From the IMG/VR virus record IMGVR_UViG_2740892369_000045: a DNA stretch of 15,280 nucleotides, one strand, 5' to 3'. This stretch comes from a virus. Taxonomy: Duplodnaviria; Heunggongvirae; Uroviricota; Caudoviricetes. The stretch's first letter is position 1. Each line of letters starts with the position of its first letter. A model generated the notes under the pieces. It saw only the letters and a program-made list of their open reading frames with translations. It was not told the DNA's origin and ran no database searches. Position numbers and translations under genes: made by a program. This document shows, piece after piece, positions 6,611 to 10,257 of this stretch.

Positions 6611-7153
6611 ATGGCATATTTTTATTTCAAATTAGACCGTGTGCAGACAAATAAATATTTCACCAAATATCAACAGACTGTTTTACCGCTACGCAACAGT
6701 ATTCTTCGGGCATTACTGAAAAATACAGGCGCTGCCGGATTGCGCTTAAAGCCGTTTGCCATGGACGTAATCAGTGAGTTTTATTTTTCTGGTGCTCTGC
6801 CTGCGGGCTGGCGTAAGCGCGATGATGTGGCTTTTATCGGGGACGGACCGTGCTTTATTGCCAGACCTGATGAGTCATGCCCTGAAGGACCGGCGATTGC
6901 CGCAATGATTGAAGCCGCTGAACGCGAGTTAAGAAAGCGTCCTGATTTCCTTGTCTGGCTCTGTGAAAAGCTGGGGGTAATGAGAATCCCCTCCATGTTT
7001 AACATGGACTCCTGGTGGACCCCGTCGCTCTCCCGTGATGCCCTGTGCGTGGTGTTTAAAGTAGGCGCTTATGGCAGGGAAATAAAAGGGGGTATTCCTG
7101 AAGAATGCCAGGAGATTAAACATTCTGAATATGTGGCGCTGACGGAGGAATAA
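6611..7153 (+). CDS. Hypothetical protein (accessory region)
   Basis: 180 aa; AAGGAA RBS about 8 nt upstream; first gene after a 97-bp gap following gam. No recognisable motif. Confidence 0.5.
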   Translation: MAYFYFKLDRVQTNKYFTKYQQTVLPLRNSILRALLKNTGAAGLRLKPFAMDVISEFYFSGALPAGWRKRDDVAFIGDGPCFIARPDESCPEGPAIAAMIEAAERELRKRPDFLVWLCEKLGVMRIPSMFNMDSWWTPSLSRDALCVVFKVGAYGREIKGGIPEECQEIKHSEYVALTEE

Positions 7154-7156
7154 TTC

Positions 7157-7690
7157 ATGATTGGTGCAAAAGTGCTTGAAGGGGTTAAAAACTGGCTGAG
7201 TATTTACGGGCGTCTGACCTGCGGCATTCTGGCTGAAAAAATGAATATGCCGCCATCCTCGATGGTTTATTTTCTGCGTGATGCGGTCGATGCCGGGGTG
7301 CTGACGGAATGTAACGGTTTTTATGATATTCCGCGTCCCCGCCCGGTGCAGCCGGTTCGTCGCAAATGCAGCCAGGAAGGTGCGGCTGATGATGTTCAGT
7401 GGTGCAGCTTCAGAAAATCCCTGCCGTGGATTGAGGGGCATGATATTCCGTCAATGGCGTGGGAATTTGCTCAGGGCGTTCTGACCTGTGAAACCGTTTA
7501 TGTGGTGGCTGAAGTTGATGAGCAGGCCATGAAAGAAGGCGTGCCCCAGTTTGTGATGGCGTATATCGACATACGCCTGGGTGTCATTATCTGCGGTTTA
7601 AGCGGCTGGAATATCACCTCGCGCGTTCTGCGTTACCTGATTGTTGACCGGACGGCCGCGCCTGCCGGGATATCTGCGGAGGTGGCGTAA
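7157..7690 (+). CDS. Hypothetical protein; N-terminal region may be a winged-helix/HTH
   Basis: 177 aa; starts 4 nt after the previous stop; the HTH impression is by eye only. Confidence 0.5.
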   Translation: MIGAKVLEGVKNWLSIYGRLTCGILAEKMNMPPSSMVYFLRDAVDAGVLTECNGFYDIPRPRPVQPVRRKCSQEGAADDVQWCSFRKSLPWIEGHDIPSMAWEFAQGVLTCETVYVVAEVDEQAMKEGVPQFVMAYIDIRLGVIICGLSGWNITSRVLRYLIVDRTAAPAGISAEVA

Positions 7691-8205
7691 TGTTCTTTAA
7701 AACATCAAACCCTTCCGCGCTGGCCGCGTGGCAAAAATATCAGCAGGACTGCCAGAAAGTTAAGGATGAGGCAAAACGCCTTGAGGCCGTGCTGAATGTT
7801 GCGTGCCGGTCGGTATTTGTATCCGGTATCAGTGGCTTTTGTTTTAAAGGGCTGCGCTTTATGGATGACAAATATCCTTTTCATCGCGACTTATGGCGAA
7901 AACCGACTGCGTCGAATGGCTGGAGCTGCACACCGCGCACATCACGTATTCCCAAAGCCCTGCGCGTTGCCTCTGACGAACTTAACAGTCTGTGGCGTGA
8001 ATATTCGCCCGTCACGTATGCCAGAACCGATGCACTGTTGTTCTGGCTGGGTATTGATTTCTCGGCAATCATGTTTGGCCCTGTGAAGTGGTTCTGCGTT
8101 GACGATGTGATTTACCTTGAGTGCGGCGTAAAACCCGCAAATCAGAAAATGACCGAAATTCTGTCTGATGAGTTTTATGCTGCTGAAAAGCGAGTCAGGG
8201 GGTGA
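7690..8205 (+). CDS. Hypothetical protein
   Basis: 171 aa; ATG overlaps the previous TAA stop (TAATG), indicating translational coupling. Confidence 0.5.
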   Translation: MFFKTSNPSALAAWQKYQQDCQKVKDEAKRLEAVLNVACRSVFVSGISGFCFKGLRFMDDKYPFHRDLWRKPTASNGWSCTPRTSRIPKALRVASDELNSLWREYSPVTYARTDALLFWLGIDFSAIMFGPVKWFCVDDVIYLECGVKPANQKMTEILSDEFYAAEKRVRG

Positions 8206-8208
8206 TGC

Positions 8209-8760
8209 ATGATGATATTACAACCCATGGGGAGAAAAGGCCGTGCACCCGCTCATGTTCGCGCATGGACACCTGAAGAAGATGCGCTGCTGATTGCGCT
8301 TTATCCATCCACCCCGGTTAAGGATATTGCTGTCAGGATAAAAAGAAGTTTCTGGGGTGTACATAACCGGATTGTTTTATTACGCGGTACTTACCCGGAG
8401 TTGCTCAAATGCAAACGCCTCAGATTTAAACCTGATGAAGATAAATTTATCCGAAAAAATGCCAGAACAATGACCGGTAAGCAAATAGGAGAATATCTGG
8501 GGCGAGACCGGGATTCTGTCCACAATCGGGCGCGATATATTGGCGTAAGCATGAAAAAATACGGAGAGTTGCTGCCCTTCACCCGCATACCTGACGATGA
8601 TGTTCGTCTTATTCGTGAATTACGGGATGCTGAATCACCACGGCGTCTTACCTTTAGGGAAATCGGCGAGAAATTTGAATTATCCGAGGGCACGGTGAGT
8701 TTTATTTATCACCGTCGTCGGACTGCCGAAGATGTTGTATTACGGGAATTAATGCCATGA
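8209..8760 (+). CDS. Putative DNA-binding protein built from three tandem ~53-aa HTH-like (Myb/SANT-like) repeats
   Basis: 183 aa. Internal repeats at about residues 20-55, 73-111 and 127-169 share the pattern x-P-(D/E)-(D/E)-D ... I-(A/G) ... V-H-N-R (WTPEEDALLIALY...FWGVHNRI; FKPDEDKFIRKN...RDSVHNRARYI; IPDDDVRLIREL...VSFIYHRR). Confidence 0.55.
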   Translation: MMILQPMGRKGRAPAHVRAWTPEEDALLIALYPSTPVKDIAVRIKRSFWGVHNRIVLLRGTYPELLKCKRLRFKPDEDKFIRKNARTMTGKQIGEYLGRDRDSVHNRARYIGVSMKKYGELLPFTRIPDDDVRLIRELRDAESPRRLTFREIGEKFELSEGTVSFIYHRRRTAEDVVLRELMP

Positions 8761-9068
8761 TAACGACATTATTTGTTGAATCAGATGAACCCCTTGTGTG
8801 TGCCGTCGGAATGCCGGTCTGTGGCGGAACGCTGACCGGTGTTTATTTCGGGGATTTGCGCGGTTATCCCTGGCATTCACTGAATGATGCTTTCCCGCCT
8901 GATATGGAGGCTGTCGTGCTGATTGTTCAGTATGGTGACCAACAGGAACTGCGCATCGGCCATATGGGGTATGAAGGCTTTTTTATTGATGAAGAAACCG
9001 GAGCCTGCCTTGAAGATGAGGACGGACAGGTGACGCACTGGTGCCATATTTCAGCTTTACCGGAATGA
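8757..9068 (+). CDS. Hypothetical protein (C-terminal ...VTHWCHISALPE is reminiscent of small phage DUF551-type proteins; tentative)
   Basis: 103 aa; ATG overlaps the previous stop (ATGA). Confidence 0.45.
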   Translation: MITTLFVESDEPLVCAVGMPVCGGTLTGVYFGDLRGYPWHSLNDAFPPDMEAVVLIVQYGDQQELRIGHMGYEGFFIDEETGACLEDEDGQVTHWCHISALPE

Positions 9069-9433
9069 CGGGAGGTGAATGCGTGAGAAGTTATATTGAT
9101 AATGAAAAACTGAAGACAATCAGCGACTGTCTTAGCTTGCTGGCAAAAATAAAAGAAACCATTGAAGAGATTAAATTTCAGCTTGAATACGAACCCTGTG
9201 GCGATGATACATTGCGTAACTCTGCCAGAAAAGCACTAGCTGTCTTTCAGAAACAACGCCGGACTGTTGAATACCGCCTTGCTGTATTGCGCCAGGAGGA
9301 AAAGGAAAGAAATATAAGACGTCATGAACTCGTTAATGATTTTCTTGTTCGTGAATTAAAGGAGCGTGTGCCGGAGTCGGTATTTTTTGAGTGTGAGGCT
9401 GTTGCCCGTAGCAAAGCACTGGAAACTGATTAA
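9065..9433 (+). CDS. Hypothetical protein, predicted largely alpha-helical / coiled-coil
   Basis: ORF track 9041..9433. Start is either the ATG at 9065 (overlapping the previous stop) or the GTG at 9083, which follows GGAGGTG (9072-9078). Charged heptad-like sequence. Confidence 0.45.
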   Translation: MTGGECVRSYIDNEKLKTISDCLSLLAKIKETIEEIKFQLEYEPCGDDTLRNSARKALAVFQKQRRTVEYRLAVLRQEEKERNIRRHELVNDFLVRELKERVPESVFFECEAVARSKALETD

Positions 9434-9445
9434 ACAGGCAGGTGA

Positions 9446-9781
9446 ATGATGAGTATTGAATTAAGATCGTCTTATGAATATCGTAAAATTCTCATCGCCG
9501 GAGGCATGAAACCGGAAGATGCAGAAAAAATCGTTTCTTTTATGGATAAAGAATGTGACAAACGGGATATGCCAGAAATTATTATGGATGACATGATTCT
9601 GCATTCAGCCGTAGCGTTAAGCCCATTATGGATTGTGCATTCTCTTGCTGAAATTGCCAAAGGCACCGATAAACAGGCAGCTGTTGCTGCCCTTCAGACG
9701 CTTAATGAAATGCGTATATCTCCACGCCCGACATTAATACATATGATTCTGTCCAGCATGGAGGATAAAGCAAATGAATAG
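9446..9781 (+). CDS. Hypothetical protein
   Basis: 111 aa; tandem ATGs at 9446 and 9449 follow AGGTGA; the true start may be 9449. Confidence 0.5.
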   Translation: MMSIELRSSYEYRKILIAGGMKPEDAEKIVSFMDKECDKRDMPEIIMDDMILHSAVALSPLWIVHSLAEIAKGTDKQAAVAALQTLNEMRISPRPTLIHMILSSMEDKANE

Positions 9782-9971
9782 TCTACCCGCTGGATGGGCG
9801 CGGCCACTAATGGCCAGGAAGCATCATTTTTTTAAAACAGGCGAAAATATCAGTATATGTGGACGGTGGTTATATCTGGCTCATAATCGCGAGCCGGATA
9901 CATTTGAAAGCCCTGATGACTGTGCCGAATGCCGCAGAAGACTGAATAAGGAGAAAGATAATGGACAGTAG
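9774..9971 (+). CDS. Hypothetical small protein with possible Cys/His metal-binding ligands
   Basis: 65 aa; start overlaps the previous stop; contains Cys29 and a C-x2-C at 50-53 (DDCAEC) plus histidines. Confidence 0.4.
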   Translation: MNSLPAGWARPLMARKHHFFKTGENISICGRWLYLAHNREPDTFESPDDCAECRRRLNKEKDNGQ

Positions 9972-10257
9972 TTCGCAGTTGTTCTGGTATTTATATATCA
10001 CATCCTTTTTCGGTGCATTCGTCATTACACGATGGCTGTGCCGGAAAGTTATCAGTATTTTTCATAAAAAATACCTGATTGGGCAGGCTGCGACTTCTCT
10101 GATTAATGCACTGGCCAGATATCATAAGGGGGAATGCTACTCAAGAATAAAAACTGATGATGGTTTTAATATTTTTGTGATTCCTCCGGAGTATCGGGTT
10201 CAGCTCGATCGGGAAAATAATACCTATCATATCCGCAGGAGTGTTGATACAGCATGA
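9961..10257 (+). CDS. Hypothetical small membrane protein (one N-terminal transmembrane helix)
   Basis: 98 aa; strong RBS AAGGAGA 7 nt upstream; hydrophobic segment LFWYLYITSFFGAFVITRWL; the gene is visibly more AT-rich than its neighbours. Confidence 0.5.
   Translation: MDSSSQLFWYLYITSFFGAFVITRWLCRKVISIFHKKYLIGQAATSLINALARYHKGECYSRIKTDDGFNIFVIPPEYRVQLDRENNTYHIRRSVDTA

Follow-up and report, generated by a model that had tools for sequence, protein, structure and literature searches.

The stretch of DNA analysed here, called the window below, comprises 15,280 nucleotides of the IMG/VR virus record IMGVR_UViG_2740892369_000045 (Caudoviricetes), and the subject of the analysis is a block of nine small open reading frames (ORFs), designated o1 to o9, at positions 6611-10257. 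The 15.3-kb window corresponds to the left arm of a Mu-like prophage, with the + strand gene order ner, transposase genes A and B, five small ORFs, gam, the nine-ORF block, gemA, mor, a lysozyme gene and the start of the head genes. The left anchor of the block, gam (5983-6513, +), encodes a host-nuclease inhibitor that is 57% identical to Mu gp10/Gam over 175 aa and is named 'host-nuclease inhibitor Gam family protein' in RefSeq. The right anchor, gemA (10254-10763, +), matches the Pfam family GemA (E = 2e-30) and is 43% identical to Mu gp16. The RefSeq annotation of the interval consists of Gam, eight proteins labelled "hypothetical protein", o4 labelled "DNA-binding protein", and gp16/GemA.

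All nine ORFs lie on the + strand. The first, o1 (6611-7153; 180 aa), encodes a divergent protein of the DUF5420 superfamily, designated type A, and occupies a hypervariable first slot after gam. It is followed by o2 (7157-7690; 177 aa), which is orthologous to Mu gp11 and combines a winged-helix domain at the N-terminus with a Gp11_C domain, and by o3 (7690-8205; 171 aa), the orthologue of Mu gp12. The basic protein encoded by o4 (8209-8760; 183 aa) contains three helix-turn-helix (HTH) repeats and is a DNA-binding protein similar to Mu gp9 ('D5-like'), while o5 (8757-9068; 103 aa) encodes a very acidic small protein, possibly DUF551-like. The small protein of o6 starts either at the ATG used in RefSeq (9083-9433; 116 aa) or at a GTG at 9041 (130 aa), and this cassette is found also in unrelated temperate phages. 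The acidic small protein of o7 (9446-9781; 111 aa) is restricted to Mu-like phages, o8 (9774-9971; 65 aa) is a Cys/His-containing protein and a promiscuous phage cassette, and o9 (9961-10257; 98 aa) is a small basic protein whose hydrophobic N-terminus is conserved while its C-terminal domain has diversified. Neighbouring ORFs overlap by 1 nt (TAATG) at o2/o3, by 4 nt (ATGA) at o4/o5 and o9/gemA, by 8 nt at o7/o8 and by 11 nt at o8/o9; the remaining junctions of the block are gaps of 3-14 nt. Purine-rich stretches resembling Shine-Dalgarno sequences precede the starts that were inspected, a set that did not include the o6 ATG at 9083, and the stretch is weak for o5. An earlier note on this DNA had described nine co-directional ORFs between gam and gemA with overlapping stop and start codons (TAATG and ATGA), and the ORF list agrees with it on both points. 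The tight packing is compatible with translational coupling.

Related loci were collected by scanning IMG/VR with gp11, which yielded 54 loci, 34 of them spanning the interval from the first slot through gemA. Among close variants in the 54 loci, the ratios of nonsynonymous to synonymous differences (pN/pS) for o1 to o9 are 0.37, 0.19, 0.21, 0.18, 0.14, 0.16, 0.19, 0.12 and 0.55, respectively, compared with 0.07 for gam and 0.26 for gemA. All nine ORFs match PHROG families with E-values from 4e-34 to 2e-104, and all of these families except that of o4 are described as "unknown function". Homologues of the block genes persist at 30-83% amino-acid identity, with synonymous sites saturated. Because of the pN/pS values and the PHROG matches, all nine ORFs are regarded as real genes under purifying selection, and the lack of coding signal that the earlier note had allowed for in several of them was not found.

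The semi-essential early (SEE) region of transposable phages is poorly conserved and encodes small uncharacterised proteins (PMC8705779; PMC3820752), and it is transcribed from the promoter Pe (PMC3820752). The interval in the window has the same setting and composition: it follows the transposase genes A and B in the early operon, is bracketed by gam and gemA/mor, and contains small, poorly conserved genes that belong to no functional family apart from HTH folds. In Mu, the part between gam and gemA is 1.9 kb long and contains five genes, gp11, gp12, gp13, gp14 and, on the opposite strand, gp15, whereas the window has 3.65 kb and nine genes. The gp11-gp12 pair occupies the same early-operon position between gam and gemA in both, and both intervals are made of small genes without known function. 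The protein of o2 is 67% identical to Mu gp11 over 177 aa and matches Pfam Gp11_C (PF25754) with 135.5 bits against a cut-off of 27 (E = 8e-40). The N-terminal domain of its predicted structure is a winged helix. The protein of o3 is 54% identical to Mu gp12 over 169 aa (E = 4e-67) and matches phrog_2314 (E = 1e-85). The gp11 stop and the gp12 start overlap by one base in both Mu and the window. Unlike Mu, the window lacks gp13 to gp15, although sister prophages carry them, and it contains in addition o1 and o4 to o9. Comparison with the Mu proteins revealed no Mu counterpart of o1 or of o5 to o9.

The o4 gene encodes a protein with an isoelectric point (pI) of 10.2 that matches phrog_323, 'transcriptional regulator, D5-like' (E = 6e-58), and is 32% identical to Mu gp9 (E = 4e-8). 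Pfam matches to HTH families are weak (Sigma70_r4, E = 4.5e-5). The two gp9 repeats have their counterparts in R2 and R3 of o4 (z-scores against shuffled sequences of 6.1 and 6.4), and R1 resembles R2 (z-score 3.8). On these alignments o4 is a gp9-type HTH protein with three repeats, the first being an extra copy. The gp9-type gene is located after gp12 in the window, whereas gp9 of Mu is located before gam. By sequence, two of the nine genes are thus conserved Mu genes, a third is a Mu-type regulator that has been moved and enlarged, and Mu lacks the other six. The earlier note had regarded the interval as nine unknown genes and about 3.6 kb of lineage-specific cargo, with only a few small genes in Mu. 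The contrast in size stands (1.9 against 3.65 kb), but o2 and o3 are conserved Mu genes rather than lineage-specific ones, and o4 belongs to the gp9-type HTH proteins.

The 34 spanning loci show 21 different gene orders. Only gp11 and gp12 are present in all 34, and each of the other genes is absent or replaced in some locus, including in otherwise near-identical relatives. DNA breakpoints relative to the window were located at 6584/6628, 7115/7149, 8766, 9074, 9434, 9958 and 10278, all within ~40 nt of gene ends. The first slot after gam contains o1 (type A), a type B allele of 196 aa that is 21-24% identical to it, both types in tandem, or a deletion remnant. The tandem is found in locus L052, where a type A gene (4862-5410; 38% identical to o1) and a type B gene (5386-5991; 31%) precede gp11-gp12. 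Three relatives without o1, namely L017 (~1096-1119), L028 and L042, retain the ribosome-binding site of o1 and the start of a different o1 allele, a few codons long (MKY...), together with the last few bases before gp11; the missing part corresponds to 6628-7149 of the window. Because the ribosome-binding site, the start and a few codons remain, the sequence shows a precise deletion of o1 in these three loci rather than an ancestral lack of the gene.

The genes downstream of gp12 are similarly variable. Alleles of o4 are ~87-100%, 72-73% or 48-54% identical to that of the window, or the gene is missing. In many relatives, o5-o6 is replaced by a gene for a hydrophobic protein of 61 aa, U61, which is found in nine loci and has the appearance of a two-helix membrane protein. 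Locus L004 has U61 (3744-3929), then the acidic 75-aa U75 (3926-4153), in addition to o5-o6. The U61 and U75 cassettes are located between o4 and o5 or o7, and neither protein has a significant Pfam match. In several near-identical prophages, o6 to o9 are replaced by gp13 (92% identical to that of Mu), a gp14 homologue and, as recognised by eye, a minus-strand gp15-like ORF; in other relatives o8-o9 is replaced by an 86-aa ORF (U86). The variable cassettes that the earlier note had expected from a comparison of Mu-like prophages are therefore present: o1 and o4 to o9 are present in some close relatives and are absent or represented by other alleles in others. Some genes travel together in the 34 loci. 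The o8 gene is found only with o7 and o9, o6 only between o5 and o7, and gp11 and gp12 are inseparable. The o8 homologue of L039 (7523-7693) diverges after residue ~19 in a frameshift-like manner and would be an example of cassette decay. A cassette of L044 (4538-5116) had a MazG-like appearance by eye, and this assignment was withdrawn for want of Pfam support.

A gp13-like ORF is located between o5 and a gp14-like gene in L003, L012, L013, L022, L026, L037, L040 and L056. The 60-aa Cys-rich gp13 protein is 92% identical to Mu gp13, whereas the neighbouring genes of these prophages are only ~50-67% identical to those of Mu. This points to either a recent exchange with Mu proper or a very strong constraint on gp13.

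The distribution of the cassettes o6 to o9 extends beyond the Mu-like prophages to different degrees. The protein of o6 matches phrog_6158 (E = 4e-56) and has a helical, coiled-coil look by eye, and its matches in sequence searches of the PDB are weak and limited to designed coiled coils. Two phage ORFs are ~40% identical to it, one in Escherichia phage Fraca (Hendrixvirinae), where it directly precedes xis/int, and one in Aeromonas phage AsXd-1. The o7 protein (phrog_1988, E = 6e-45; pI 5.2), helical by eye, has a 34% identical counterpart in SfMu and Yersinia Mu-like phages and alleles 41-45% identical in distant loci. The o8 protein (phrog_2358, E = 4e-34) has a Cys/His pattern resembling a zinc ribbon by eye. 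A tblastn search with o8 retrieved 185 phage records, 153 of them from Pseudomonas phages (genomes of ~66 kb in the rows listed), with ~33-45% identity. A Pfam search at E ≤ 5 placed o8 near DUF6011, and this match was disregarded (E = 0.14). The o9 protein (phrog_17269) has the highest pN/pS of the block (0.55). Its two alleles are ~51% identical overall; residues ~10-33 are near-identical (LFWxLYITSFFGAFVITRWLCRK) and the remainder is divergent. The protein looks membrane-anchored, but its maximum 19-residue hydropathy of 1.34 is borderline for a membrane helix.

The most constrained gene of the block, as far as sequence comparison can tell, is o5. Its pN against distant relatives is 0.10 (pS ~0.6, saturated), compared with 0.22-0.36 for gp11, gp12, gemA and mor and 0.22-0.5 for its neighbours overall. 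The protein (phrog_6925) has a pI of 4.05, with 18 D/E and 2 K/R among 103 aa and a net charge of about -16. Its C-terminal 66 aa align with DUF551 (PF04448), colinear over profile positions 2-61 of 68, with 14.4 bits against a cut-off of 22 (E = 0.073), and the full-length protein yielded no DUF551 match in Pfam. Phages encode acidic inhibitors that mimic DNA, such as Ocr, ArdA and similar proteins. Like these, o5 is a small, extremely acidic and strongly constrained protein of an early operon; unlike them, it has no sequence match to anti-restriction families in Pfam, NCBIfam or PDB, and weakly resembles DUF551 only. Strong constraint and extreme acidity are expected of a protein with a conserved host partner, and o5 possibly binds one, perhaps as a DNA mimic.

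The protein of o1 has no Pfam match, even at E ≤ 5, and does not reach the gathering score of DUF5420 (PF17457), a family without known function or solved structure. Nevertheless, it shows significant full-length homology to this superfamily. A direct search with o1 retrieved 14 homologues, and a profile including diverged alleles retrieved 132, almost all from Salmonella and E. coli and most with Pfam DUF5420; the PF17457-bearing proteins were retrieved at E-values of ~1e-70 to 6.5e-78. They align with o1 from end to end, with the common motifs YFK, PD, W and IKHSE..TEE, and are 21-38% identical to it; P0014, a relative 38% identical to o1, is named 'DUF5420 family protein' by NCBI. An exhaustive HMMER search with the o1 family resulted in 153 clusters at 50% identity, nearly all of stand-alone proteins of 170-210 aa. 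One distant member lies among small unknown genes of a 176-kb metagenomic scaffold with no obvious Mu-like context. The predicted structure of o1 is confident, with its elements in the order beta-alpha-alpha-beta4-alpha2-beta3-alpha, and no solved structural analogue of the model was found. The alleles of o1 are 21-38% identical.

An alignment by hhalign of the deep DUF5420 superfamily alignment with gp12 covered the full length (151 columns) with a probability of 67% and P = 5e-5, whereas the control comparisons of the DUF5420 profile with the other eight families gave P-values of 0.08-0.9. Aligned motifs are YFK with FFK, LG with LG, and EIKHSEY with EILSDEF. Shallow local alignments of o1 and gp12 were not significant with hhalign (E = 0.17), the gp12 hidden Markov model gave only a weak match to the DUF5420 representatives (best E = 0.029 in a set of 145 sequences), and direct BLASTP among the nine ORFs revealed no significant paralogy. 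It is probable, not proven, that gp12 (o3) is a distant member of the DUF5420 superfamily and a paralogue of o1; the grade is limited to probable because the deep superfamily alignment alone gave P = 5e-5. If gp12 belongs to this superfamily, gp11 is flanked by two paralogues, of which the upstream one is optional and fast-evolving, and L052 would have three probable superfamily members in a row, gp12 included.

Searches of the nine proteins for functional families found little. PADLOC returned no significant match; its sole row at E ≤ 0.01 was a marginal match of o4 to a homing endonuclease (E = 0.0096, 13.6 bits). NCBIfam yielded no useful match, and sequence searches against PDB yielded nothing significant for any of the nine. 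Across Pfam, NCBIfam and PADLOC, no catalytic, defence or anti-defence family was detected and HTH folds are the only known domains. The earlier note had recognised no catalytic motif, which these searches confirm, and had named early-operon accessory regions as known sites for host-takeover and counter-defence functions; for a defence role the searches offer no support. A literature search retrieved nothing relevant on DUF5420, the RefSeq proteins of the block or anti-defence in the Mu early region.

In the segment 5900-11400, the frequency of promoter-like and terminator-like sites does not exceed that in shuffled sequence. At the top of the list of terminator-like sites is a hairpin followed by a T-run immediately 3' of gemA (10768-10791, +; 9-bp stem with 5 G-C pairs and a T-rich tail; TTATTTTAAA). 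Because there is no excess of such sites and this hairpin comes after gemA, the arrangement fits expression of the block by read-through from the early promoter, with the nine genes presumably co-transcribed. This and the tight packing agree with the placement of the block in an early-operon accessory region and its probable co-translation, as had been suggested. Temperate phages have mosaic accessory regions of the 'moron' type, an example being the lambdoid early-left region (b/exo-xis). The block resembles these in that genes are inserted, deleted and swapped at gene boundaries and in that single cassettes are common to unrelated phages, as with the o6 homologue near xis/int in Fraca. It differs from them in that the scan gave no evidence of promoters or terminators belonging to single cassettes, which appear to ride on the early transcript.

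These observations are best explained if the block is an ordinary array of the SEE type, in which a constant gp11-gp12 core is combined with exchangeable single-gene cassettes on the early transcript, each acting alone; the probability of this reading is estimated at about 75%. The interval would be the distal half of the SEE region of a widespread E. coli Mu-like prophage, and its genes would be transcribed as part of the early operon and coupled in translation. The constant core would consist of the winged-helix protein gp11 followed by the DUF5420-like gp12, with a stop/start overlap as in Mu. The variable slots around it would be the o1 slot, the gp9-type o4, the acidic o5, and the string o6 to o9 or its replacements, gp13-gp14-gp15 or other small genes. 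Exchange would occur at gene boundaries or within conserved flanking genes, as would result from recombination between prophages and selection for intact genes. Each product most likely acts singly, early in lytic growth. The proteins of o2 and o4 would bind nucleic acids and tune transcription or DNA transactions of the phage or host, the target of o5 would be a conserved host protein, which it might engage by mimicking DNA, and the membrane would be the site of action of o9. The DUF5420 proteins may be host-interaction factors under diversifying pressure.

It is very improbable that the nine genes form a single co-functional system, such as a multi-component operon for counter-defence or host takeover. 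The tight packing, the overlapping stops and starts, the single orientation, the location in an early operon, where such functions are expected, and the fact that no internal terminators stand out are all in line with one system. The block is not read as one system because the 34 loci show 21 gene orders, the cassettes assort independently, and o6 and o8 occur also outside Mu-like phages, where they are found alone in unrelated genomes. All genes but gp11 and gp12 are missing or replaced somewhere, and tight packing is normal throughout the early operon, as the ORFs upstream of gam also show. The earlier note had considered the block the most likely place in the window for an undescribed system, and this proposal does not survive the independent assortment of cassettes around two invariant genes. 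The chance that several ORFs are not genes at all but fortuitous open frames in a transcribed spacer is practically negligible; the short length (65-111 aa) of several ORFs and their lack of a Pfam domain speak for it, but all nine have pN/pS values of 0.12-0.55 and PHROG matches at E ≤ 4e-34, their homologues are maintained despite saturated synonymous sites, and RefSeq calls all nine as genes.

Some cassettes might be morons expressed in the lysogen that protect the host by superinfection exclusion or anti-phage defence, instead of serving lytic functions. In favour of this, o9 and the U61 of relatives resemble small membrane proteins, a common form of exclusion factor, and low-level transcription from Pe through the SE genes in Mu lysogens has been described, with a benefit for the host proposed (PMC3820752). 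However, PADLOC gave no significant match apart from the marginal row of o4, no promoter-like excess is present within the block, and the orientation and packing are those of a repressor-controlled early operon, which together make this explanation unlikely. Somewhat better placed, though still doubtful, is the idea that o1, the winged-helix gp11 and the DUF5420-like gp12 form one functional module of Mu-type phages and that the rest is unrelated cargo. It is plausible that a DNA- or RNA-binding adaptor cooperates with at least one diversifying subunit that serves as effector or sensor, and such a module is compatible with the array of cassettes preferred here. The constant adjacency of gp11 and gp12, with the same overlap in Mu and the window, the probable paralogy of o1 and gp12 on either side of gp11, the two tandem o1-type genes plus gp12 in L052, and the fast evolution of o1 (alleles 21-38% identical, pN/pS 0.37) all point in this direction. 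On the other hand, o1 is absent from Mu and present only as a deletion remnant in several close relatives, so that it is dispensable for the role of gp11-gp12; relatives of DUF5420 occur without gp11 in a non-Mu context; and an interaction among o1, gp11 and gp12 is purely hypothetical.

Several points weigh against the array of independent cassettes. The 34 loci were recruited by a gp11 match, so that the invariance of gp11 is built in and only the co-occurrence of gp12 is informative. The co-occurring sets (o7-o8-o9, o5-o6-o7 and gp11-gp12) leave room for smaller functional pairs. Co-transcription is deduced from the absence of signals, and the functional readings of all nine genes are inferences from fold, charge and conservation. 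The homology between o1 and gp12 is probable with an HHalign probability of only 67%, and the possible link between o5 and DUF551 is below the threshold. The model of gp11 has low confidence (predicted local distance difference test score, pLDDT, 63), and its C-terminal domain is uninterpretable.

The kind of region is already known, and its genes have been catalogued, eight as hypothetical and o4 as DNA-binding, with PHROG families assigned. What is new here is a map showing how cassettes are exchanged, the assignment of o1, and probably of Mu gp12, to a single DUF5420 superfamily without a solved structural analogue, and the recognition of o5 as the most constrained, DNA-mimic-like candidate. 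That o5, the DUF5420/gp11/gp12 trio, or both have a new function in host interaction or counter-defence seems rather unlikely. If so, the trio could comprise a nucleic-acid-binding adaptor and fast-diversifying paralogous subunits without a solved structural analogue, and it might act against the defences of the host or suit replicative transposition to hosts of different kinds; o5 could be a new inhibitor of the DNA-mimic type against a conserved host nuclease or restriction enzyme. The order of priority for cloning is o5, then o1/gp11/gp12, then o9, and screens for defence or counter-defence should not count the block as a single system.

Many E. coli genomes contain chromosomal DNA that matches the segment 5900-10800 with 100% identity, and the prophage is carried by 233 of 5426 complete E. 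coli genomes (~4%). The carriers are mostly Shiga-toxin-producing E. coli, such as O157:H7, O111, O103 and others. Two records of Shiga toxin (Stx)-converting phages contain an annotated "inserted Bacteriophage Mu-like phage" that is ~97% identical to the window. The effects of the early accessory genes on the host are of practical interest, given this frequency and the insertion into Stx phages. From its hosts and type, the prophage is very probably of the type described as Sp18 in O157 Sakai (PMC2669165). The similarity to the Mu-like phage inserted in Stx phages starts at 261/262 of the window, and a truncated host epimerase/dehydratase pseudogene lies upstream; positions 261-262 are presumably the left end of the prophage.

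The spacer between gam and o1 contains a conserved hairpin (6554-6582, +), GGCGC-N19-GCGCC with an inner CAG/CTG stem and an AT-rich stretch on its 5' side. Besides the window, Mu (L002, ~6368-6398) and every related locus with this spacer have it, and it is kept even where the flanking proteins are only ~30-65% identical. RNAalifold predicted 10 pairs for it, one of which shows a compensatory change from C-G to U-A in three sequences. It has no T-run, and its interpretation as a classical terminator was rejected; it could be an element of RNA processing or stability, or a protein-binding site. Rfam contains no RNA family matching any part of the window.

In Mu, a hairpin and T-run comparable to those found after gemA in the window was recognised by eye after mor, whereas that of the window lies between gemA and mor. 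Because of this difference in position, mor may be expressed differently in the lineage of the window than in Mu. Just upstream of gam, the ORFs e4 (5401-5673) and e5 (5651-5971) share 33% identity over 55 aa in a search of a tiny database (E = 0.02) and appear to be weak paralogues of each other.

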